Shown here piece by piece: positions 14,330 through 51,304 of a stretch of 64,000 nt of DNA; the first letter of the stretch is position 1, and the number at the start of each line of letters is the position of its first letter. This stretch comes from an uncultured archaeon (GTDB taxonomy: Archaea; Altiarchaeota; Altiarchaeia; IMC4; SCGC-AAA252-I15), in the NCBI GenBank assembly GCA_902384455.1, contig CABMCB010000071.1, forward strand, positions 139,315 to 203,314, written 5' to 3'. The position numbers and the translations under genes were made by a program. The notes under the pieces are model-generated. The model ran no database searches. It saw only the letters and a program-made list of their open reading frames with translations, and was not told where the DNA came from.

Positions 14330-14728
14330 ATGGGGGAACCCACCGTAAACCGCAAAGACCAAATCACAAAAGTCCTCATCGAAGACCTGCAGCCACTCGA
14401 AGACATCTACTTCTGCTTCGTAGCAAGCAAAAACCTCGAAGGCATACTAGCCCCCATAAAAGAAGAACACAAAAACGAAATCCTACCCATATGGGAAGAC
14501 CTCAAAAACACAATGAACGAACTATTCGACGTAATCACACACTACAGTGAACACGGCCTAGATAAAATATACTTTGAACTAGGAAACTACGACGTACTCT
14601 TCTTCATACTGCCCGGAAGCAACACCGCATTAGGCGCAGTCATACCCGCACTCGCAAACAGAGGACTACTTGAAGTAGAACTGGAAAACGCCCGACGCGC
14701 CATAATCAAAATTCTAGAAGAAACATGA
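14330..14728 (+). CDS. Roadblock/LC7 (MglB-like) domain protein
   Basis: 132 aa with a pattern compatible with the Roadblock fold (...YFCFVASKNLEGILA... YDVLFFILPGSNTALGAVIPALANRGLL). Its stop overlaps the start of the next gene (ATGA). Confidence 0.55.
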   Translation: MGEPTVNRKDQITKVLIEDLQPLEDIYFCFVASKNLEGILAPIKEEHKNEILPIWEDLKNTMNELFDVITHYSEHGLDKIYFELGNYDVLFFILPGSNTALGAVIPALANRGLLEVELENARRAIIKILEET

Positions 14729-16050
14729 ACCCTGCTGAAATAGCACTAAAAAAAGAAATCATGGGCGCCACACCCACCCCCAAACCAGAATTCAAAGCCG
14801 CAGTAGGCTTAAGCCGCAAATGGGACGCCAGAGAAGCAGGACGAGAAGTAGCCAGAAACACCCTAGAACAACTAGGAAAAGACCCCCACTTCCTCCTACT
14901 CTTCTCAACAATACACTACGAAAAACACGGCGGATTCCAAGAACTACTCAACGGCGTATACGACATACTACCCAAAGAAACACCACTAATAGGCGGAACA
15001 GTCGCAGGATTCATAAACCAACAAGGATGCTACACACGAGGCGTCACAGCACTAGCAGCCAACTACCCAAACATGAACGTAGCAATAGGAATAGGACACA
15101 ACACACGTAAAAATCCGGCAAAAGCCGCCGAAGAATTATCCTCAAAAGTAAAAATATCAAATTCAAAAAATAATCTCCTTTTTTGTCTCATCCCCGGAGG
15201 GACCGTTCCAAGTTTTCCGGGTTTAGGACGAAAAAAAGTACTAAAATCTGGTTCAGTCGGAAATGCGGCAATAGGTTTGCTTGAACTTTCAATAGAACTT
15301 TCTCAATTAGGTCCTGGACGAGAAGATGAAGTAATCGAAGAATTAAGCAAAGATTTGGAGAATTATTATATTCTGGGAGGTAGTACAATGGACGATCTTA
15401 ATCAAAATCGTTCATACCAATTTTTTAATAAAGCAGTTAGCACAACAGACGTTGTGGGATTAAACCTATCCTCAGATTTACTAAATTATGAAATAATTAC
15501 CACAGATGGTTTGAAAAAAACCGGCAAAACCCTGCATATCACAAAAAAATCGTTAAGAAATTGTGTTATAGAGGAAATTGATAATAAACCTGCTACGACA
15601 GAATTTTTACGGAAAATTAACTGGCCCGAAGATTTTCTGAATGAAAGGCTATACACAAAAACTTTTTATTACCCTCTTGGAGAAACAGTTGAAGGAGTGC
15701 TAAGGCCTCAAATAATAGGGGCTTTTTTAGGGAATAATATTGCATGCGGATACAGCATAAAAACAAATGATTTAGATATCCTTTCCGCGTCTGGTCTGTC
15801 TTTAGTTGAATCAGCCAAAAACGCAATTCTACAAGCTAGCAAATACAAAATAAAAACATTAATTGGTGTTGTGTGTGCGACACAACTTGAAACATTAGGA
15901 CATAATATCTACCGGGTCTATAACGCAATATCTCCATTACTAGTAGACACCCCCTTTATTATCCTCTATTGCGCGGGTGAAGAAAGTTATTCGCCAAAAA
16001 GTCCTCCAAAACAACTTTATGACACGTTTAATATTGCCTCGATTAGCTAA
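14725..16050 (+). CDS. FIST-domain (FIST_N+FIST_C) putative sensor protein with an internal base-composition switch
   Basis: 441 aa. The N-terminal half (HFLLLFSTIHYE...PLIGGTVAGFI...) and C-terminal half (FYYPLGETVEGVLRPQIIGAFLG) fit FIST N/C. Composition changes abruptly near nt ~15110, from ~55% GC to ~35% GC. Confidence 0.55.
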   Translation: MNPAEIALKKEIMGATPTPKPEFKAAVGLSRKWDAREAGREVARNTLEQLGKDPHFLLLFSTIHYEKHGGFQELLNGVYDILPKETPLIGGTVAGFINQQGCYTRGVTALAANYPNMNVAIGIGHNTRKNPAKAAEELSSKVKISNSKNNLLFCLIPGGTVPSFPGLGRKKVLKSGSVGNAAIGLLELSIELSQLGPGREDEVIEELSKDLENYYILGGSTMDDLNQNRSYQFFNKAVSTTDVVGLNLSSDLLNYEIITTDGLKKTGKTLHITKKSLRNCVIEEIDNKPATTEFLRKINWPEDFLNERLYTKTFYYPLGETVEGVLRPQIIGAFLGNNIACGYSIKTNDLDILSASGLSLVESAKNAILQASKYKIKTLIGVVCATQLETLGHNIYRVYNAISPLLVDTPFIILYCAGEESYSPKSPPKQLYDTFNIASIS

Positions 16051-17177
16051 AGTGAACGGATTTTTTCAGCCCACTCACTTCTTACCGCCTTATCAACTTT
16101 TCTATCTGAAAATGCACGATAAAAATCATCCTTGATTTTTGTAGTACTCTCCAAATCTTCACCCAATTTCGCTCCTATATACCTCTTTTCTTCCCAACAT
16201 TTTCTGTACATTAGCAAATTTTTTTTCTTCCATTTTCCTTGTCTAATTGCGTTTATAGACGTCTCACCTGCAGCAATTCCTGATAGCATAGATGGGACAA
16301 TACCCTCACCTGTGATTGGCTCAACGATACCTGCAGAATCCCCAACTAAAATAATGCCGTTCCCAATCGTATTCCGTGCTGGCAGGGGTCCACACGTTGG
16401 GATACCACCCCCTCTAATCTCCTCTATGGTATACTCTCTTCCAATAATCTTATGTAACGGTAAATATTTTTGTATCAAAAATACTAATGCTTTTTTTAAA
16501 TTATTTCCCGGAGCTACTGCAACACCTATATTAGCAGTATTTTTCCCTTTTGGAAATACCCACCCATAACCTGATGGAAATTCCTCGCCAAAAAATACAT
16601 GCCAGTAGTTATTTTCTTTAATTTTTACTCCACTTACAAGTAACTCGTAAGCAACAGCGTATTCTCCCTGTTTCCACGGTTTTCTAATATTAGCCCATCT
16701 ACCAACGTTTGCTTCAAAACCATCTGCGCCAATAACTATTTTTGTAGAAATATCAAAATTTTTATTATCTCTCCCAACTTTTACTTTTATTCGATCTCCT
16801 CTAAATTCAAGTCCCTTCGCAGTAGCACCAGTATAAATGTTGGCGCCTTTTTCAGAAGCTATATCAGATAAATACTTATCAAAAATTTTTCTATCTAGAG
16901 TAAAACCTCGCCATTTCTCTCCGGAAAAAAAATATTCTTCGTTATAAAAATAAATTTTTGTACCATCTATCTCCTGATTAATAAAAGATTTTTCTGATGG
17001 TATTCCAGTATCTTGGAAGGCGTCCTTATTTATAGCTTCTGCGCATCTAACCGGACTTCCAATTTTCTCGTCTTTCTCAATATTAATTACGTCTAATCCC
17101 CCTTCAGCGGCAATTTTTGCAGACATTGACCCCGCCGGTCCTGCTCCTACTACTAGTACGTCGCATTCTTTTTTCAT
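16047..17177 (-). CDS. Geranylgeranyl reductase family FAD-dependent oxidoreductase
   Basis: 376 aa, VLVVGAGPAGSMSA dinucleotide-binding motif and GGR-family similarity throughout. Very AT-rich. Confidence 0.8.
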   Translation of the reverse strand: MKKECDVLVVGAGPAGSMSAKIAAEGGLDVINIEKDEKIGSPVRCAEAINKDAFQDTGIPSEKSFINQEIDGTKIYFYNEEYFFSGEKWRGFTLDRKIFDKYLSDIASEKGANIYTGATAKGLEFRGDRIKVKVGRDNKNFDISTKIVIGADGFEANVGRWANIRKPWKQGEYAVAYELLVSGVKIKENNYWHVFFGEEFPSGYGWVFPKGKNTANIGVAVAPGNNLKKALVFLIQKYLPLHKIIGREYTIEEIRGGGIPTCGPLPARNTIGNGIILVGDSAGIVEPITGEGIVPSMLSGIAAGETSINAIRQGKWKKKNLLMYRKCWEEKRYIGAKLGEDLESTTKIKDDFYRAFSDRKVDKAVRSEWAEKIRSL

Positions 17178-27650: not shown

Positions 27651-28364
27651 TTAACTTGTTTCTTCTTTTAGTTTTTTTCTTTTATCTATCCTTTCCTTAA
27701 AGTCGTTTAACTTACTTGGAGCGACATATACATATTCAACTATTGCTCTGAAAAACTCGTCAATAGCTATAGTATCATATGGTTTTACCTCTCCTGCTAA
27801 GTCATGCGCTCCAGCATTTCCGAGGTTTCTCAATACTTCAGTCATCTCAGATAGTACCGGCGGTATTTCTCCATTAGACGCTAATTTTTTTAATCGTTGT
27901 TGTAAAGTGCCTTTTCTTATTCCTCTGTCCGTACATATCGCTTCAAGAGTACGTCTAATCTGAACAGCAAATGCGTTTGGAGCTAACTCTCGTATTCTTG
28001 CTGCTTCTTCATAGAGGTTTGAAACTCTTTTCGGAACAGAATTATGAAGTTGCCCCAACCTTGTTGGGTATACTAAATCATATCCCGAAAAATCTATATA
28101 CCCTGAGGGATCTACTTCATTGCTAGGTCCATATTCAGTTTCATCCTTCCCATATAATAAGACTTCATGGCAAATTTCACAAACTGCGACATAAAATGTA
28201 TATAGCGATTCCACCTCTGCTTTTTCTCCGCTAGTCCAATATCCACCTTCAAGAATGCTATGATGCGTATACACTAACTTTTGTTGCGTTAGATTCCCGC
28301 AATGATGACATAATGCAACATTACGAACCTCTACGTCCTTTTTCTGTACTTTTTGCCTCTTCAT
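27651..28364 (-). CDS. Zinc-ribbon protein with C-terminal DUF4145 domain
   Basis: 237 aa. N-terminal CHHCG...CEICH zinc ribbon. C-terminus matches the DUF4145 pattern (IRRTLEAICTDRGI...LQQRLKKLASNGEIPPVLSEMTEVLRNLGNAGAH). The gene is markedly AT-rich relative to its flanks. Confidence 0.6.
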   Translation of the reverse strand: MKRQKVQKKDVEVRNVALCHHCGNLTQQKLVYTHHSILEGGYWTSGEKAEVESLYTFYVAVCEICHEVLLYGKDETEYGPSNEVDPSGYIDFSGYDLVYPTRLGQLHNSVPKRVSNLYEEAARIRELAPNAFAVQIRRTLEAICTDRGIRKGTLQQRLKKLASNGEIPPVLSEMTEVLRNLGNAGAHDLAGEVKPYDTIAIDEFFRAIVEYVYVAPSKLNDFKERIDKRKKLKEETS

Positions 28365-38367: not shown

Positions 38368-41300
38368 GTGGTTATACTCATGAAGGTAGTTGCTTCTCCT
38401 GCGTCTTCGGGCGAGGATTTGGACGTGCCTTCAACGTTGCCCGCCCTCGATGAACGCGCCGCCGCCATAGCTCAAAATCTGGCATTGAAATCCGGCAGCC
38501 AGAGGGCGCAGGCTTACCTTCGTAGTTCTGAGGGTCAGCGTGGTCAGGATGGGTCTGGCGTGGGTGACGGATCGGATGATTCTTTTTCTCGCAGGCGCAA
38601 AAGGAGGAAGCAGCCTTTTGAGGGGGTGCCTGAGGAGTTTGCTAGGCGGGCGGCGAAGGATTCTTTCCGAGAGGAAATCTCTTCCTTATCTCAGGCTGAG
38701 TTGGGGCGTCTTGCAGTAACGCTTTCTAAGTACGCTGAAACAGGCATGCCTATCGAGCAGGAACGCGTTGTGGCGGCCTCTGTGGTTGAGCAGTGTCTTT
38801 CACCCGAGGTTTTGGGTCGTTTTGACCGTGAGGCTCTTGTTTCAGAGTGTGTTTCTTTCGGAGGCGTTAGAGGGCATGTTGATGGGGAGGTTGCTGCGCG
38901 TTTAGGTTTGGCTTCTGACGGGAGTGAGGGGGCGTTGGTTAGGGAGGTTGAGGCGGGACTTAGGCGTGCGTCCGAGGTTGTTGGCATTAGGTCTGATTCT
39001 GTGGTTTTTGATGCGGCTAGGGCTTTTGAGTTGGTTGTTCCTTTGATTGGTGATTCTAATGTTTTGCGGGGTGTTTATTCGGAGATTGTCGGTTGGGGCG
39101 TTGGGGGGCGTAGGTTGGAGGGGATTTCGGATGAGAGGGCTCATTTGGCGGGTTTGGTTGTGCGGCGGTTGGATGATTGGGTTAAGCGGGAGTTTGCTTG
39201 CGGGCTTGTAGCTGAAGGGTTTAATCCTCGCTATTCTTCGCGGCGTAGTCTTATTCGGGAGGCGGTGTCTGTCGCTGATTCTTGTAGTGACGGCTCTAGG
39301 ATAGCTGTTGCGGAGGTGCTTTTTGACAGGTTGGGTTCTTTGGAGTCTGATGATTCGTCTTTGAATGCTGCGACAGAGGCGATTGGAGGTGTTCTTTCTG
39401 GCGTAAGGCACGGGAGGGCTGTTGAGGATTTTCTTTCGACTCATGACTTGAGGCTTCATCCTTCGGGTAGGGTCAGGAATGCGTATGCGGTGATGTTGGG
39501 CAACTTAGGTGCGGCTTCGCAAGAGTCGGGAGTTAAGGTTTTGTGCGCAAGCAAGCTTTCGGATCTCTTCGATTTCCCGCCGCATGAAAGAAGGAATACC
39601 GAGCATCATCTTGACGTCTCGGAAGTTCCTTTCACCGCAGGAACCCAGCTTCTGAAGGTAGCCCGTTCCATGGACGACCCGGCAGACTTGATGCCGGTGG
39701 TTGACGGCGTCAGCCGGCACGTAGACCACCCCATAGAATTTGTCAGGGAAAACGCTGCTGCAGTACTTATGGGAATAAGAAGTCACGTCGGAGGACTGGA
39801 TGCTTCGCGGGTTGTGCTATCGGAAGTGGAAGAATCAATGTCTGCCACAATAGGAAGCCACAGAAACGCGTTTCCCGGAAGCGAGCCGCAAGTGGACGCA
39901 ATAAAGAAAGGAGTAGCTCGGGTCATAAGAAAGCACGGGGCCGCAGCGGCAAAATCAGACGACCCGGCCGAAACTCTCGGAAGATTGTCTGAAAGAGTCT
40001 TTGACGGCGTGGAATTCCCAGACACCTATTCGGAAGGATTAACCCGGCTTAAGGCCGCAATCGCGGGAGAACTTGCCGACCAAACGCCTGTATTAAATAA
40101 TCTCGGTTCTACGGCAGACGATTTGAAGGCTCCTGTTCTTGCGCGCATAGACGATGCGTTAGCTCACTATCCTTACCATTTGGCCGGGGATTTGGTGCGG
40201 GAGGATTTAGTCGGCCGTCTTATTGGGCGGGTGAATGCGTCAAAGGGTATGCAGCATTCTGAGTTTGATGGTTCTTTGGTTTATCATAGGCAGTTGGCTG
40301 GTTCTATGGTTTTGGGTATTGCTGATGGGGTTGTGGAGGAGGCGTCTGCGCTTAGGGTTTTGTCGACTTTGCTTTCGAATGTTGCAGGCTATCATGAGTA
40401 TGGGTTGCCTGTGAACGCAAATGAGTTTTCTGAGACTCTGTCGCGGCTTTGTTCGCGCATAAGTTCCTCTGAGGGTGCTGAGGCAGCGGCTGTAATGTTG
40501 TTGGACAGGTGTGACCGCCAGAATTATTACTGGCGTGATGTGCCTTTTGTGGGGCTTGCTTGCGGGATGGCGGGTAAGATTTCGGATTCTGAATCTGCGG
40601 GTAGGGTTCTTCCTGCGTTTGAGCGGGCGGCGAAGGCGTGGCAGCCAAATAATGTCGGAGAGGGGAATTCTGCTTTGGATGAGGTCGTAAGGTTGTGTGC
40701 TTTGTGTCCGCCTCAGAGGCGGGCTCAGGTAATATCCGGCTTAGTCGGTGACGTTCTGGGGAAAAGCGACGAAGACAGATTCCTCGGATTAATATACAAT
40801 GCCCCGTTGACTGCCAGAGCTATCGTGAAAATAGCTTCATTAGGGTCGGCCGAGGAGAGGGTTGAAACTGTGAGGGCTGCTGTGGTGGATGTGGGTAAGG
40901 TTCCTCGCGATGAAAGGGAGTTGTTGATGTACGGTGCGGTGAGGGCGTGTGTTTCAGACGACGAGGTTAAGCAGGTGGCTGCCGCCGCGTCGGAAATACT
41001 TTTTCCAGGCGATAAGAGTAGTCCCATGTACTGTGCAACAACAAGCGCCCGCTCTCTTATGGCCGACAGGAGCGGTTTAAGCAGCAGGGAACCTCCTGTT
41101 GTCGTCGAGTTCGATGAGGCTACGGAGACGGCGAAAAGGTGTGCGTTGCTTATTGAGGATCCTACGGAAAGGTTTACCGCGGCAAAAAACTTTGTTCCAT
41201 CGTACTCCTTCCATGAGGACAGGTATAATGTAGCCGCATTGTCTGCCGCCAACTCTGTGGTGGCGACATTAAATGGGCATGGAGTGCAGGCGGAGTACGC

Positions 41301-43716
41301 GAAAGAACTTCTTAACTCCCTGCGGCACAGGAGCGACAAATACGAGACCTGCCGTTTGATAACCCAGACTGTCTCAGGATTAATTCCGCAGTTCTCGCGG
41401 CAGGAAACACTGGAGTTCCTTGCCGCCCTTCCAGTTGAAATAAGCGCAGTAGAACAAAGAAGAGACCACGCAGGAGTAAGAGGTCAAGTAGCCAAACTTG
41501 CGGCAACAGCATTTGAGGCGTTGGGGCCAGAAGGCCTTCAGGAAGGATTAAACGCGGTATTACAGACGATAGACCACCCGCCTAAAGATTCTCACATAGA
41601 CGCCGAAAGGACTCTCATAGACATAGGGCGGGCTGTGTCGGACGATTCATTGCTTTTGTCGTTCGCCCGCAGAATAGCCCCGAACTTATCCGACCCTTAC
41701 TCTCAACGGAGGGGAGACGCGGCAGAGGCGCTTGCCGAATTCGGAAGCAAAATTCAAAATCCCCAAATTCTTGCGGAACTTGTGGCTTTAATAGAACCCT
41801 CCCGGCAAAGCCCAATATCTGAAATAAGCAGGACCGCCTCCAACACCCTCACCCGCATGAGAGACCTAACTCCTACAGAAGCCGCAGAAAGACGGGCGAT
41901 AATAACCGGCGCACCACCTCCCGCCGAAGTCACAGACGAAAAACGCCTAGCAACACTAAGCGAACTATGCGCCCACCCAACAGCACTCTACCACGACGAG
42001 TCCATACGATGGGTCGAAGAACTAGCAAACGGCCTCAACGACCCCCAGATGAAGGTTACGGCTGCTGAAATGCTTTTGGGCACTGGCCGGCGGAAAACCG
42101 AAAGGAGAATGACAGCTTTGGTTGCCACACTTGTTGAGCCTGAAAAGCTAGACGGGATACTTCAGGAAGCAATAACGGGTCTTTCTGCAGGAGACGGAAG
42201 CAGGGAAACAACGCTTGCAGGCCTAAGCGAACTCGGGGCGCTTGTGCCCTACTGCAGAAACCCGCATATTCTTGCTCAAGTCTCACAGATGAGGGACGGC
42301 CTGATCATGAGTTTGTGCGAGGCGAGAAAATTGAGTTCCGTGGAAGTGGGCGCTATAAGCCGCATTTTAGAGGAGACTTCGGCTGCCGGAGTCAGCGGCG
42401 AGTTGATGAATGCTTTCAGCGCGGTGGAGATGCCTTATGACGCAGGGTCCCTTCGTCTGATATCCGAACTCGCCTTCTGGACAGGCTCAAAAATAGTTCC
42501 CGGAACCCTGCCGGCATACTGCACCCTAGACAGAAGCTCATTCATATTCAGCCCTCAATCACAGGAAGCAGGATACACGGAAACCGTCTTAGCCTCCCTT
42601 AAGGAAACAGTCGAACTGGGGCTCATAACGGAGAAAGGCCTAGGATACGACCTGCCGATAAAGGATCCGCGGTATAAAATAGGAAACGCCTTCCACGGAA
42701 GAAGCTCCTTCTCCATAAGCGAACCCACCCAAGGAGACACCTCATCTTACGCCCGCGTATTCAAGGCAAACGGCACATACTACGGAACAGACGGAATAAG
42801 CTTCCAATGGCGAGGAGGCCAAAACGAAATCCACCTCGAAGTCCACATGTTCTGGGGAGGAGACATACTCAAACTAAGCGACATACAAGCAAGAAACGCA
42901 TTGCGCATAAGAAAAGGACTAAACGACCTATACAACCAAGGCGACCCCCACATACGCCGTGCGGTAGAAGAATTCGGCGCATTCCCGATAACAGAAGACG
43001 GAATAAACCCCGACGCAATATACCAACCATTCGGCCAATTCAAACCCCAATTCATACCTCAATGGCTAAACCCTGAAGAAAGCAAAACAGGCGAAAGCAT
43101 AGGGAGAATAAGAAACATACGACACAGAGACGGCCTAAGCATAGCAGGAGTGCCGGACGAATACATAAGAGGCCACAGGATAATCGGATACATAGTGCCG
43201 GTGCCGGAGCGCGTAGGCGAACTGACCCCTATAGGGCAGGCAGATGCCGCCTGGGTTAAAACGTTTTCCTACTGCGGATACCAGCTGATACGCCAGCCAG
43301 GCCAAATTCCTCGCGTAATGAAAGACGGGCAGGAAGTCGAATACAGGGAAGCAGCCCGTGAAGTGCTTTATGGATTCGCCTCCCGGTGGGCCTCAGTAAA
43401 CTATTACGTGCACCACATACTCAACGGGGCTCTATCTAACGACTTCGGATCCGTATACGACGATGAACAAAAGCACAACTCTGGGTTCTGCCTGCATGAC
43501 TTGGACGTAGCATGGGCCGGCGACCAGTACGATGCCATGCACAACCGCACTCCCACAAGCAAGCCCACACTAAGCAACTCACGAGAATACTACCAGCGGG
43601 AAGACGACAGAAACGCCCTCCAACTTCTGGACTACATCGCCGGGCTGCTTAGGGTGCCGGAAATGCACCAAGAAGCGCAAAACATATTCCTGGAAATAAA
43701 CCCCCCATCAAGGTAA
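38368..43716 (+). CDS. Giant cytoplasmic HEAT/ARM-repeat protein (1782 aa) with unassigned ~400-aa C-terminal globular domain
   Basis: Single uninterrupted ORF. It may start with GTG at 38368 or ATG at 38380, and has no signal peptide or TM. Residues ~1-1350 are Ala/Leu/Arg/Glu-rich with many PBS-lyase-type HEAT units (e.g. GDAAEALAEFGSKIQNPQILAELVALIEP). The C-terminal domain is compositionally different and contains FSYCGYQL ... YVHHILNGALSNDFG ... CLHDLDVAWAGDQYD. Confidence 0.75.
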   Translation: MVILMKVVASPASSGEDLDVPSTLPALDERAAAIAQNLALKSGSQRAQAYLRSSEGQRGQDGSGVGDGSDDSFSRRRKRRKQPFEGVPEEFARRAAKDSFREEISSLSQAELGRLAVTLSKYAETGMPIEQERVVAASVVEQCLSPEVLGRFDREALVSECVSFGGVRGHVDGEVAARLGLASDGSEGALVREVEAGLRRASEVVGIRSDSVVFDAARAFELVVPLIGDSNVLRGVYSEIVGWGVGGRRLEGISDERAHLAGLVVRRLDDWVKREFACGLVAEGFNPRYSSRRSLIREAVSVADSCSDGSRIAVAEVLFDRLGSLESDDSSLNAATEAIGGVLSGVRHGRAVEDFLSTHDLRLHPSGRVRNAYAVMLGNLGAASQESGVKVLCASKLSDLFDFPPHERRNTEHHLDVSEVPFTAGTQLLKVARSMDDPADLMPVVDGVSRHVDHPIEFVRENAAAVLMGIRSHVGGLDASRVVLSEVEESMSATIGSHRNAFPGSEPQVDAIKKGVARVIRKHGAAAAKSDDPAETLGRLSERVFDGVEFPDTYSEGLTRLKAAIAGELADQTPVLNNLGSTADDLKAPVLARIDDALAHYPYHLAGDLVREDLVGRLIGRVNASKGMQHSEFDGSLVYHRQLAGSMVLGIADGVVEEASALRVLSTLLSNVAGYHEYGLPVNANEFSETLSRLCSRISSSEGAEAAAVMLLDRCDRQNYYWRDVPFVGLACGMAGKISDSESAGRVLPAFERAAKAWQPNNVGEGNSALDEVVRLCALCPPQRRAQVISGLVGDVLGKSDEDRFLGLIYNAPLTARAIVKIASLGSAEERVETVRAAVVDVGKVPRDERELLMYGAVRACVSDDEVKQVAAAASEILFPGDKSSPMYCATTSARSLMADRSGLSSREPPVVVEFDEATETAKRCALLIEDPTERFTAAKNFVPSYSFHEDRYNVAALSAANSVVATLNGHGVQAEYAKELLNSLRHRSDKYETCRLITQTVSGLIPQFSRQETLEFLAALPVEISAVEQRRDHAGVRGQVAKLAATAFEALGPEGLQEGLNAVLQTIDHPPKDSHIDAERTLIDIGRAVSDDSLLLSFARRIAPNLSDPYSQRRGDAAEALAEFGSKIQNPQILAELVALIEPSRQSPISEISRTASNTLTRMRDLTPTEAAERRAIITGAPPPAEVTDEKRLATLSELCAHPTALYHDESIRWVEELANGLNDPQMKVTAAEMLLGTGRRKTERRMTALVATLVEPEKLDGILQEAITGLSAGDGSRETTLAGLSELGALVPYCRNPHILAQVSQMRDGLIMSLCEARKLSSVEVGAISRILEETSAAGVSGELMNAFSAVEMPYDAGSLRLISELAFWTGSKIVPGTLPAYCTLDRSSFIFSPQSQEAGYTETVLASLKETVELGLITEKGLGYDLPIKDPRYKIGNAFHGRSSFSISEPTQGDTSSYARVFKANGTYYGTDGISFQWRGGQNEIHLEVHMFWGGDILKLSDIQARNALRIRKGLNDLYNQGDPHIRRAVEEFGAFPITEDGINPDAIYQPFGQFKPQFIPQWLNPEESKTGESIGRIRNIRHRDGLSIAGVPDEYIRGHRIIGYIVPVPERVGELTPIGQADAAWVKTFSYCGYQLIRQPGQIPRVMKDGQEVEYREAAREVLYGFASRWASVNYYVHHILNGALSNDFGSVYDDEQKHNSGFCLHDLDVAWAGDQYDAMHNRTPTSKPTLSNSREYYQREDDRNALQLLDYIAGLLRVPEMHQEAQNIFLEINPPSR

Positions 43717-43731
43717 GGCGCAATAAATCAT

Positions 43732-44904
43732 CTACGCCAAAGATTTCGCTATCTCCTTCTCCGCCTTCTCCTGCAGAGGATTGGTTACTGCGTCTTCCGC
43801 AGCAAACATCACCTTCTGGACGGCGGTAGGGTGGGTTCGAGCGTACCTATCCCTGCACTCGTCCCTGAATTCCCCGATTGATAAACTGTCGCAGACGCTT
43901 ACGTTCATCGTGTTGACTGCAACGTCGCCAACGCAATCAATATGATTATCAAAATCCTTAACTTTGTCGCACAATTCAGGACGCTTCCACTTAGACGCCA
44001 CTGCGACAACGCACTCTTTGTACTCCTCAGGGTAACTCCCCATCTTACCACAGTACAATTCATTCCCTCTATCCGCCGCAACCGCCGTAAAACAAGCGCC
44101 GCTACCCCCCTCAAAATTAGATATAGGAAGCAGGGAGTTGTTGACCTTATTGCAAGACTCCGGGTCTGCGGCGTTAATGCCGACATGCAGATAACACCGG
44201 TTGGCGTCAAACTCATTCGTAAGATTACTGCAGGCCTCAGGATTCCTCCCAATAGAAGCAAGACAAAGCGATTTGTCACTCCCCCCAAGCTTGTTGCAGA
44301 CGCCTGCCTCCCTAGTTGAAAGGCCTACCTGCAGGTTGCATTTGTCGCGGGTGTATGCGCCTTCGATTTTGTCGCATAGGTCTGTGCTGTTGGCGTTGGT
44401 GCCTGAGTACCCGTAGCAGTCGTCTTTGAGGTCTTTAGAGTTTATCTTGTTGCAGAGTTCTGGTTTGTTGTGGAATTTTCCTATGCGCCCCAGGCAGGCA
44501 TCGCGGCTTGATTCGTCAGTCAGCTGTTCGCACATGGAGGAGTCACCTTTGGAGAAGGCGACGTCACCCAGACAGGACTCTGCGTCGCTCTTTTTAGGGA
44601 ACTTCTCGCATATCGCAGGATCCTTGTTCCTCGTCGCCGCATTAGTAAGGCACTGTGTCTGACGGGTATCATCAGGAAACAGGCTACATTTGTCGGGGTC
44701 GTCTATTATGCTGCCTAATGAATTAAGGCACTCCTCCCGGTCACTAGTATAATTGTGTTGGAGGCATATTCGCGGGTCCTCGGAATCCAAGGCTTTCTGG
44801 GTTATTGGGTCGTGCTCCTCAAAGCAGCCCGAAGCAAAAACAACGATTAAAACGGCGGCAAACGCCGTCCACACCCCCCTAGCGGGATGACGAGCGGTTG
44901 CCAT
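43732..44904 (-). CDS. Lipoprotein composed of ~12 tandem Cys-pair repeats (same family as 34606-34920)
   Basis: 390 aa, signal plus lipobox (VVFASGC). Repeating ~24-aa unit D-P-x-x-C-x-x-(I/L/F)-x(6-8)-(R/K/S)-D-x-C-(Y/L)-x-x-(V/I/A), e.g. DPRICLQHNYTSDREECL, DPAICEKFPKKSDAESCL, STDLCDKIEGAYTRDKCN. Confidence 0.65.
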   Translation of the reverse strand: MATARHPARGVWTAFAAVLIVVFASGCFEEHDPITQKALDSEDPRICLQHNYTSDREECLNSLGSIIDDPDKCSLFPDDTRQTQCLTNAATRNKDPAICEKFPKKSDAESCLGDVAFSKGDSSMCEQLTDESSRDACLGRIGKFHNKPELCNKINSKDLKDDCYGYSGTNANSTDLCDKIEGAYTRDKCNLQVGLSTREAGVCNKLGGSDKSLCLASIGRNPEACSNLTNEFDANRCYLHVGINAADPESCNKVNNSLLPISNFEGGSGACFTAVAADRGNELYCGKMGSYPEEYKECVVAVASKWKRPELCDKVKDFDNHIDCVGDVAVNTMNVSVCDSLSIGEFRDECRDRYARTHPTAVQKVMFAAEDAVTNPLQEKAEKEIAKSLA

Positions 44905-49066: not shown

Positions 49067-51304
49067 TTAGCCTCTTTCGTCTTCTTTTTGCTGGGGATTC
49101 CTTTCTTCGTCGGCATCTTCGCCCTCCGTCAACGACTGACCTATCGATAACGATATGTGTTTCGGCCTTATATTAGCGTTTGCATGCGGCTTGCGCTCCT
49201 TGACGTGTTCCACGGCCTGCTCCACCTGCTCCTTCATGTGCATTACGTAAGGCTCCTCCCCTGCGTGTTCAAGATGCGATTCGCCTTCAGAGCCCTTGAA
49301 AGCCTTGTAAGAAAGTGACGTGACAGTAAGCATCGCAAGCCCCAGAATCCCAAGGACTACTGCGACTACTCCGACGCGGATGCCCCAGTAAGTGATTAAT
49401 GCGCGCCTATACGCCCAACGTATGCCGTCAACGGTAGCGCGGCCTTCCTCAACGCTTGCGATTCCTTTTTCGTCTCCCAGCGCTCTGTACGAAGTTTCCG
49501 CTCCGTCAAGAAGCGCGTACGCTTCGTCGTAGCTTTCGTTTCCTGCCGCGGAAACAGCGCGGGAAATGGATGTCTGAGCGTCTTTGCCCATGAGGGCGAG
49601 ATTCTGGACTGCAAGAGCATCCTGACTTGTGTTCTCCATCTCAATGAACTGGTACGCGGAAACGGCCATCGCCGCCCACTCGCTCGCATTCAAGTAGTCT
49701 CCTGCGGCATAAGCCTCTCTTGCGTTGGCCAGATATATTCCTGCCCTCGGATAACTGCGGGCGTAATTGACAAGGTGTGTGGCCTGCGTTATTAACTGCA
49801 TGTCGCCCAGCTTCTGATAAAGGTCCAATGCGGCCTGACCTGTTTTTTCGGCGTTGGCGTAGTCGTTTTGGTTGAGGTACGAGGCCGCCTCGTTGTACTT
49901 TGCGTCGGCGGTCATCCTGTCTGATATGCGGGTGAGCATCCGCCCGCTCTCAAGCAAACCCACGTTGTCTCCTGAATTCTTGAAGAAGTCGTTCGCTTGA
50001 GAAGCCAAATCCTTCGCCTTGGCGAAGCTCATGTTCCTGTAGGCGTCCTCAGACGCTCTCAGTAGCACAGTCGCCCTCTTCTGCTGCATGTAAGGCTTGG
50101 TGTCGAATCCGCGTACTCTCTGGTCCGTGCCGCTTGTGACGACATCCAAGTAACTGTCGCCGTTGAAGTCACCCGCCTTAAGTGCGGTTATGGGACTCAT
50201 CTTGTCCGAACTCCATATTAAGCCGCCTGTTTTGTTTAGGATGCGAAGTCTGTCTGAGCCGACTATTACTTCCGGCGATCCGTCGCCTTCAACGTCAGCA
50301 AGAGCAATTCCTCCCACAGGCCCTGAACCAGCATAACCCCAAAGTCTGTTGCCGCTGCCGTCGAAAGCGTAAACCACGCTGCCTGCGGCGACAATATCCT
50401 TATTTCCGTCGCCGTTAAGGTCGACCAAAATAACCCCTTTGACTGAACCTGAAACATTAGCCTCAAACCTAAGGGAGCCGTCGTGGTTCAAAACGTCGAT
50501 TTCATCCTGGAGGCCGGCCACAATCTCAGGTTGGCCGTCGCCGTCCAAGTCGCCTGCCTGCACAGTATACGAGCCCATGGAGGCCTGATACCTCCAAAGT
50601 ATTCCTTTTACTGTGTCTATTGCGACTATGGGTGCGGGTCCGTTGTAAGTCAGGCTGCGGCTTCCTCCTGTGGGGTCGAGTCTTGTTGCCGAGTTCACTC
50701 CGTTCTTGACGAACCCCGCTATCACCTCGTCTTTTCCGTCGCCGTTGACGTCGGCGCTTGTGAAAGTCAGAGGTGCTTCGTACATGGAAAACCCTATGGA
50801 GTTTATCCGCCCTCCGTTGTTGTCAACAATGAATACGCTGTTTCCGCTCAACCCCCCGGAAGTCCCAATCACCGATTCGGTCTTACCGTCCTTGTTAAAG
50901 TCCGCTGCATACAAACCGCGGCCGTCCGCGTATGTGGCGAAGCTCCATTTTTTGTCGCCTACTGAGTTGAATGCGTGGACGTATACTGGGGACCCCATGA
51001 GTATTGTCGCTTGGCCGTCGGGGTCGTTTGCGGCGAAGCTGTTGTACATTAGGCTGCCTATGAGTCTGCTCCACGCTAAGGAGCCGTTGGCTTCAAGTGC
51101 GTAGAATGTTCCTCCGCGGGTGGAGTCGACAAGAATCAGGGATCTGCCGTCGTACTGGTATGTGTTGATGTTTTTGTTGGCTTCTGAGAGGGCATAAACC
51201 CAAGTGGGCGTCAGAATCACGTCAGTCGATTTCGTAGCCGCAGCTGCGGCGTACGGAGTGAGCATTAAGGCGCACAAGACCGCCAGAAGAAGCAACTTAT
51301 GCAT
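49067..51304 (-). CDS. Type I membrane protein with FG-GAP/VCBS beta-propeller ectodomain and helical (TPR-like) juxtamembrane region
   Basis: 745 aa with signal peptide. Repeats include DVNGDGKDEVIAG, DLDGDGQPEIVAG, DLNGDGNKDIVAAG, DVEGDGSPEVIVG and GDFNGDSYLDVVTSG (integrin-alpha-like Ca-binding FG-GAP blades). Single TM and an acidic cytoplasmic tail. Confidence 0.7.
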   Translation of the reverse strand: MHKLLLLAVLCALMLTPYAAAAATKSTDVILTPTWVYALSEANKNINTYQYDGRSLILVDSTRGGTFYALEANGSLAWSRLIGSLMYNSFAANDPDGQATILMGSPVYVHAFNSVGDKKWSFATYADGRGLYAADFNKDGKTESVIGTSGGLSGNSVFIVDNNGGRINSIGFSMYEAPLTFTSADVNGDGKDEVIAGFVKNGVNSATRLDPTGGSRSLTYNGPAPIVAIDTVKGILWRYQASMGSYTVQAGDLDGDGQPEIVAGLQDEIDVLNHDGSLRFEANVSGSVKGVILVDLNGDGNKDIVAAGSVVYAFDGSGNRLWGYAGSGPVGGIALADVEGDGSPEVIVGSDRLRILNKTGGLIWSSDKMSPITALKAGDFNGDSYLDVVTSGTDQRVRGFDTKPYMQQKRATVLLRASEDAYRNMSFAKAKDLASQANDFFKNSGDNVGLLESGRMLTRISDRMTADAKYNEAASYLNQNDYANAEKTGQAALDLYQKLGDMQLITQATHLVNYARSYPRAGIYLANAREAYAAGDYLNASEWAAMAVSAYQFIEMENTSQDALAVQNLALMGKDAQTSISRAVSAAGNESYDEAYALLDGAETSYRALGDEKGIASVEEGRATVDGIRWAYRRALITYWGIRVGVVAVVLGILGLAMLTVTSLSYKAFKGSEGESHLEHAGEEPYVMHMKEQVEQAVEHVKERKPHANANIRPKHISLSIGQSLTEGEDADEERNPQQKEDERG

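Follow-up and report, generated by a model that had tools for sequence, protein, structure and literature searches.

A stretch of 64,000 nucleotides from the genome of an uncultured archaeon (contig CABMCB010000071.1, positions 139,315 to 203,314; the window) carries a gene at 38368..43716 (+) for a protein of 1782 amino acids, here called the giant protein. We think it probable that this is a soluble cytoplasmic protein in which a helical, HEAT/ARM-like platform of ~1,200 residues is joined to a catalytically competent, SelO-like kinase-fold domain of an undescribed family. The family of the C-terminal domain (C-domain) is absent from all searched libraries, extremely rare, and archaeal where its sources are named, and the structural model of the domain is confident. 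An earlier note, made from the sequence alone, had described the protein as a giant scaffold with an enzymatic tail of a kind uncharacterised in archaea. That description stands for a family that is rare, unannotated and archaeal where named; the catalytic residues that the note proposed for the tail do not.

A rare family at the C terminus

The amino acid composition of the giant protein shifts at ~residue 1400, where aromatic residues rise from 3-8% to 9-13% and Ala declines, in keeping with the compositionally distinct C-terminal domain described in the earlier note. When residues 583-1782 were scanned exhaustively with HMMER against 1.84 billion cluster representatives, the last ~400 residues recurred in 12 other representatives of 112 to 1312 aa, giving a family alignment of 13 sequences (14 with additions); P0136, the full-length form of the fragment P0008, was added to the family set. 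The family clusters are almost all singletons. Their named sources are a Candidatus Altiarchaeota metagenome-assembled genome (MAG) and a 'Methanobacteriota archaeon' MAG, the remainder being metagenomic. The domain stands nearly alone in P0006 (374 aa), P0010 (397 aa) and P0012 (389 aa), follows unrelated N-terminal regions of 250-400 residues in P0003, P0004 and P0005, and lies within a 1312-aa protein in P0013. Two paralogs are encoded in the Altiarchaeota MAG JBDREA01, namely P0006 (L002 7893..9053) and P0004 (724 aa, L003 6881..9055). The N-terminal extension of P0004 is ~390 aa long, and both JBDREA01 paralogs sit amid housekeeping genes (MCH, fumarase, AdoHcy hydrolase). Three homolog neighbourhoods could be compared: L001 has genes for a GCD14 methyltransferase and an FKBP, L002 for an M41 peptidase, a GNAT protein and AdoHcy hydrolase, and L003 for MCH and fumarase.

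Neither the family members nor their profile found a match in Pfam, NCBIfam, PADLOC, PHROGs or PDB sequences, which agrees with the earlier view that the domain cannot be assigned to a family; there being no match in PADLOC or PHROGs, nothing therefore points to a role in defence or in phages. A TIGR-Tas match in NCBIfam, at E 0.036-0.16 and 12-14 bits where the cutoff is 100, was put down to chance. A word-indexed homolog search returned only the giant protein when the full protein was the query and only P0009 when the family profile was used. A genome scan with giant-like patterns found nothing, and with small-family patterns found only the Altiarchaeota MAG with its two paralogs. No relatives of the family turned up in two metagenome scans and two viral-contig scans, and the window holds no second copy of the domain.

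A protein-kinase-like fold closest to SelO

The AlphaFold2 (AF2) model of residues 1350-1782, built from the 13-sequence alignment, is confident (pLDDT 88.2, pTM 0.89). As modelled, the catalytic domain (residues ~1441-1782; 42688..43713, +) has a protein-kinase-like fold that is closest to SelO. None of the Foldseek matches of the C-domain is significant; the best are to SidJ, YdiU/SelO, p38/MK2, PKR, PI3K and actin-fragmin kinase. Its three nearest structural neighbours are SelO, AcsD and SbnC, and the structural alignment with SelO has 13% identity. In most family members the kinase-like core is preceded by a conserved small alpha/beta sub-domain (residues ~1376-1440; 42493..42687, +) with the consensus FPVN..LL..A...GVI....G.Y.IP..P, which is seen in the alignment and modelled by AF2 at high pLDDT.

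AcsD and other NIS synthetases are adenylating enzymes, the products of AcsD and SbnC being acyl-adenylates (PMC3323832, PMC9356276). An adenylating ligase like these enzymes or SidJ would convert a carboxylate, on a small molecule or on a protein Glu, to an acyl-adenylate and then ligate it to an amine or alcohol. The SelO match is clearly better, however; the domain is only ~340 residues long and is missing the thumb and finger domains specific to NIS synthetases, and neither the window nor the three homolog loci have siderophore or other biosynthetic genes nearby. We regard such a ligase as very unlikely.

Conserved residues of the kinase-like domain

Although the family members are only 24-47% identical to the giant protein, 11 positions are invariant: Arg1445 (HGRS), Gly1497 (HxFxGG), Gly1545, Pro1564, Arg1604, Tyr1608, Arg1615 (PER), Trp1629, Asn1704, Asp1711 and Asp1746. 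Lys1466 (vFKGxG, 9/11), Arg1515 and Asn1678 are near-invariant. Arg1445 (42700..42702, +; 11/11) and Lys1466 (42763..42765, +) are candidates for binding phosphates, those of a nucleotide in the case of Lys1466. Arg1604, Tyr1608 and Arg1615 (HRxxxY....PER; 43177..43212, +; 12/12) may form a second phosphate-binding cluster, which we propose to be analogous in idea to Arg176 and Arg183 of SelO (PMC8097203). Asn1704 and Asp1711, with the consensus HN(V)NPLx(I)FDYD (43477..43500, +; 13/13), would be the Mg2+-binding Asn of the catalytic loop and the DFG-type Asp. Asp1746, at the start of the long C-lobe helix (43603..43605, +; 13/13), may correspond to the structural alphaF Asp of kinases.

Lys1466 is replaced by Leu in two members, P0010 and P0012, and each of these carries Arg at position 1496 in the HxFxGG motif (42853..42855, +), a position at which most of the Lys-bearing members are non-basic. 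The alignment thus suggests that two adjacent strands share one required positive charge, a relocation of a basic residue that is reminiscent of WNK kinases.

Only the Lys strand, the Asn and the DFG-like Asp are recognisable as kinase motifs. The C-domain has no match to PF00069 or PF07714, and the GxGxxG, HRD, APE and alphaC-Glu signatures are missing from it; at the HRD-equivalent position, after the vF strand, the 13 sequences have Gln in nine, Asp in two, Ser in one and Asn in one. A conventional Ser/Thr/Tyr protein kinase or small-molecule kinase, holding ATP in the canonical orientation and transferring its gamma-phosphate, is in our judgement unlikely. Transfer of AMP, or of another nucleoside monophosphate (NMP), is somewhat more likely than canonical phosphotransfer, by analogy, because the HRD Asp is not conserved and because SelO, AcsD and SbnC, structurally the nearest, all have the alpha-phosphate of ATP as their point of attack.

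The same features bear on whether the domain is active at all. If it were an inert pseudokinase-like or nucleotide-sensing module, and the whole protein a structural or regulatory scaffold, this would suit a Lys that is not invariant, a missing alphaC Glu, a site with no identifiable catalytic base, and a protein that is for the most part scaffold. We consider this improbable, and an active enzyme the better reading, because 11 positions stay invariant at such low identity, the three Arg, one Asn and two Asp among them being typical of a phosphate and metal site, and because stand-alone versions of the domain exist, which argue for an activity of its own. The compensatory swap between K1466 and R1496 also speaks against an inert module.

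The earlier note had proposed another catalytic set, an ordered Cys...His...Asp arrangement. The motifs it quoted are all present in the order given: FSYCGYQL at 1633-1640, YVHHILNG at 1680-1687, SNDFG at 1690-1694 and HDLD at 1710-1713. A papain- or transglutaminase-like thiol hydrolase with a Cys1636-His1682-Asp triad could draw on this order in the giant protein and on the conservation of His1682, which is kept in 11 of 12 sequences. Its candidate nucleophile, Cys1636 (43273..43275, +), belongs to an inserted beta-hairpin missing from four family members, and among the eight sequences with the segment it occurs in the giant protein alone, the others having W, F or Y. Asn1686 is found in 2 of 12 sequences (usually Gly), Asp1692 of the 'DFG' varies (3/13), and His1710 is present in 2 of 13 (usually Phe). 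With its Cys unique to the giant protein, His1710 seldom kept and a fold that is not papain-like, the thiol hydrolase is refuted, and we give it virtually no chance. The note had also named an atypical kinase-like H..N/DFG core as an option; there, the guess at a kinase-like fold was right and the specific catalytic residues were wrong.

The long helical region

The N-terminal ~150 aa of the giant protein (38368..38814, +) are rich in Ser, Gly, Asp, Glu and Arg and include a basic patch, RRRKRRK. Residues 150-1349 (38815..42414, +) are predicted by AF2 to be all-alpha, with ~66 helices of 10-20 residues and no strands; this model, from a two-sequence alignment, has a pLDDT of 56.7 and a pTM of 0.31, and the arrangement of its helices in three dimensions is unreliable. 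Foldseek found 167 PDB matches to it at E<=1e-3, with E down to 9e-8 and TM of only 0.1-0.2. The best of these are nearly all large HEAT/ARM/TPR solenoids, including UTP10/20, MMS19, SKI3, Integrator, SF3B1, CRM1, importin-beta, CAND1, mTOR and Scc2, and it is reasonable to regard the modelled region as an alpha-solenoid-like scaffold.

At the level of sequence, the resemblance to known repeats is confined to one place. Pfam found no family in the full giant protein at E<=1, HEAT included; self-BLAST found no internal sequence repeat, and a hidden Markov model (HMM) made from 12 canonical 31-aa HEAT units of P0014 located no unit in the giant protein. Significant resemblance in sequence to canonical HEAT arrays is limited to residues 1039-1166 (41482..41865, +), a stretch that includes LSDPYSQRRGDAAEALAEFGS and matches, in a search of 1.8 billion proteins, the HEAT arrays of the NACHT-HEAT proteins P0014 (E 6e-5) and P0015 (E 5e-4). 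It does so in several overlapping registers and covers ~3 units of the ~1350 aa of PBS-lyase-type HEAT/ARM repeats claimed in the earlier note. What remains of that claim is the all-helical, solenoid-like character given by a low-confidence model; the assignment to PBS-lyase HEAT repeats has no profile support.

One gene across both regions

The open reading frame (ORF) runs uninterrupted from a GTG at 38368 to 43716 (+), stop codon included, and is the single frame of 1782 aa that the earlier note had read. The NCBI start is an ATG at 38380, four codons downstream, which gives a protein of 1778 aa. The giant protein is identical to VVB53707.1 ('Uncharacterised protein [uncultured archaeon]'), which is encoded on a 248-kb contig. 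Its highest KD-19 value is 1.23, and because no segment reaches the hydrophobicity of a transmembrane helix the protein fits a cytoplasmic location, as had been claimed.

Could so long a frame be an artefact, either a fused pseudogene or an assembly chimera of a scaffold gene and an unrelated enzyme gene? Along the ORF both codon use and strand composition vary, with the largest deviations from the window average in residues 1-300 and 601-900. Over the gene as a whole, codon usage and composition are close to that average. P0002 (1215 aa), from a different, JGI metagenome, is collinear with residues 686-1779 at 31% identity (BLASTP, E 1e-144), and the alignment is one block that spans the junction between scaffold and enzyme. 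P0136 (1390 aa) is similarly built, with a long helical N-terminus followed by the same C-domain. A run of 1782 codons without a stop has a probability of ~2e-37 at the base composition of the window, and the identical sequence is annotated on the 248-kb contig. An artefact therefore has next to no probability, and the fused pseudogene that the earlier note had named as a possible refutation is excluded by the collinear ortholog P0002.

On the coding strand, 38500..39500 and 40500..41000 are strongly G+T-rich, with a GC skew of +0.34 to +0.45 and an AT skew of -0.13 to -0.44. These stretches probably reflect a composition rich in Val, Gly, Ser and Arg. There is no tandem DNA repeat within the giant gene.

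Genomic surroundings

As the earlier note had it, the giant gene is divergent from a superoxide dismutase (SOD) gene and convergent with a Cys-repeat lipoprotein gene. The former, upstream, encodes an Fe/Mn SOD (37649..38260, -) and the latter, downstream, a protein of 390 aa (43732..44904, -). The SOD gene and the giant gene are 107 nt apart, and the sequence between them includes TTTAAAAG (38300..38307, +), which reads as a TATA-box-like element. We take it to be a candidate archaeal promoter element, perhaps an archaeal TATA box that serves both genes or works in both directions. A TATA-binding protein gene just past 43732..44904 agrees with an archaeal origin.

The 390-aa protein has a lipobox-like N-terminus (...VVFASGC...), after which a unit of ~25-30 aa is repeated in tandem at least nine times. 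Every repeat has two Cys spaced as Cys-x(12-13)-Cys, as in PRICLQHNYTSDREECL and DKCSLFPDDTRQTQCL. The protein has no Pfam match at E<=1 and looks like a member of an unannotated family of Cys-repeat surface lipoproteins. On the other side of the SOD gene, a Cys-rich, secreted-looking protein of 622 aa (35755..37623, +) has repeated 'YCGNG(V/I)C' and 'CGDGxC' motifs and likewise no Pfam match at E<=1. Three genes in 14725..17177 and 27651..28364 have a third-position GC of 0.26-0.30, against ~0.55 in the remaining window, and may be horizontally acquired islands. A homolog with 25% identity to an FG-GAP beta-propeller protein of the window (49067..51304, -) is encoded on the metagenomic contig of P0009 (L001 279..2387); a related lineage probably accounts for this, not a link in function.

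Discussion

The three invariant Arg, the Lys or Arg, the Asn and the Asp, placed on the modelled kinase-like fold, have the look of a Mg2+-nucleoside triphosphate (NTP) site, and from them we infer a mechanism. The C-domain would bind Mg2+-NTP, with the invariant Asn1704 and Asp1711 as metal ligands and a basic ring of Arg1445, Lys1466 (Arg1496 in some members), Arg1604 and Arg1615 gripping the phosphates. Judging from the usual roles of scaffolds, the solenoid would be a protein-binding platform that recruits or positions the substrate, and part of the nucleotide would then pass to the protein or other substrate that the solenoid presents. Put more specifically, and tentatively, the giant protein could stand beside SelO as its structural sister and catalyse a nucleotide-dependent modification of a non-canonical kind (AMPylation, other NMPylation or adenylate-mediated ligation), with the solenoid as a built-in substrate adaptor.

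Several points weigh against a SelO-like enzyme on a scaffold. The family alignment is small, and the model of the N-terminal region is of low confidence (pLDDT 57). The link to SelO and kinases has no support in sequence from Pfam or HHalign: none of the 13 members matches PF02696 at E<=1, and HHalign of the family profile with E. coli SelO and with a 9-sequence SelO alignment gave a probability <1%, a weak negative with a SelO profile that is shallow, the homolog search on E. coli SelO having yielded only close enterobacterial sequences at least 79% identical. The residue equivalences to SelO follow motif order and a permissive alignment, not a superposition. Lys1466 is not invariant, and no conserved alphaC Glu is seen in the family alignment. 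The position before Asn1704 varies (His or Pro) and, with the HRD-equivalent position also variable, no catalytic base can be assigned. Finally, no common partner gene is found across the three homolog neighbourhoods, which give no hint of a substrate.

The fold and the general logic of such an enzyme are known; the family itself is new, within a known superfamily, and no link to SelO can be made from its sequence. Kinase-fold enzymes that go beyond phosphorylation are a fast-moving area, and include SelO (AMPylation, and lately UMPylation and NAD hydrolysis), SidJ (glutamylation) and the NIS synthetases. New kinase-like families are now emerging in numbers from structure-based screens (bioRxiv 10.64898/2026.09.18.752743), which tempers surprise at one more. 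If the SelO-like reading is true, archaea would have in the giant protein their first scaffold-tethered kinase-fold AMPylase, and in the K1466/R1496 swap a catalytic basic residue would have moved in the manner of WNK kinases. A separate archaeal family with a SelO fold would bring such chemistry to archaea, for example to Altiarchaeota, SelO itself being almost absent from archaea (PMC3281104).

The family is invisible to profiles, with only about a dozen finds among 1.8 billion cluster representatives, and those finds include natural dissections of the architecture: some members are little more than the domain, others have 250-400 residues ahead of it, and others again have ~1,000 to 1,350 residues that, where modelled, are mostly helical. 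The scaffold of the giant protein is among the longest in the family. Such dissections could reveal how a scaffold directs its enzyme, and six or seven conserved residues now replace the non-conserved Cys, His and Asp of the earlier note as targets for mutation.

Comparison with known systems

The N-terminal region is like the HEAT/ARM scaffolds (importin-beta, CRM1, CAND1, MMS19, the HEAT region of mTOR, and bacterial NACHT-HEAT proteins) in being all-helical over ~1,200 residues with short helix pairs, in its local Foldseek matches, and in the kinship of residues 1039-1166 to HEAT_PBS-like arrays. It differs from them in having neither sequence repeat periodicity nor a Pfam HEAT/ARM match, and its global model is unreliable. 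From eukaryotic-type kinases (haspin, PRP4, CLK, IRAK, RIO and Bud32, among others) the C-domain differs in having no Pkinase profile match. The NIS siderophore synthetases (IucA/IucC; AcsD 3ffe, SbnC 7cbb) are larger, three-domain proteins of 565-574 aa with no sequence similarity to the C-domain, and the giant gene has no biosynthetic context.

The closest comparison is with SelO/YdiU (PF02696; 'AMPylating pseudokinase'; PDB 6eac, 6iii, 6k20), a protein adenylyltransferase. As in SelO (GDGR...hLKGAG), a G-R motif comes ~21 residues ahead of an h-K-G-x-G strand in the family; next come a long helix and a strand ending in Gln at the position of the HRD Asp, then an invariant Asn and Asp, and then a helix that opens with an invariant Asp. 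The Asn and Asp that appear to correspond are spaced by 7 in the family (FDYD) and by 9 in SelO (NTDN...(I/L/F)D(Y/F)G). By alignment, Asn253 is the conserved Asn of the SelO 'NTDN' catalytic loop, and it is presumably a metal ligand. A permissive HHalign alignment of the family with SelO is collinear over 282 columns and puts FDYD opposite the DFG/DYG motif. It also sets SelO Lys113 opposite position 1496, not 1466, and the K1466/R1496 swap fits either register of the N-lobe.

As described in the review PMC8097203, SelO has no HRD catalytic Asp and binds ATP flipped; Lys113, supported by Glu136, holds the gamma-phosphate together with Arg176 and Arg183, and Asp262 is the Asp of the DFG motif. 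Like SelO so described, the family lacks a conserved HRD Asp. For the K113-E136 pair the candidate is Lys1466, present in 9 of 11 sequences with Arg1496 in the two exceptions, and the alphaC-like helix has no conserved acidic residue; for R176 and R183 the candidates are the invariant Arg1604 and Arg1615, in what appears from the alignment to be the corresponding part of the chain.

Unlike SelO, the family has no conserved alphaC Glu, no C-terminal Sec/Cys redox motif (it has no conserved C-terminal Cys, and the giant protein ends ...FLEINPPSR) and no SelO-specific C-terminal helical extension. It has an extra N-terminal sub-domain of ~65 residues and the beta-hairpin insertion, and the domain of the giant protein is fused to an N-terminal region of 1,350 residues. 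The named family members are all archaeal, whereas SelO is mainly bacterial and mitochondrial and is rare in archaea, where it was found in 3 of 107 genomes (PMC3281104).

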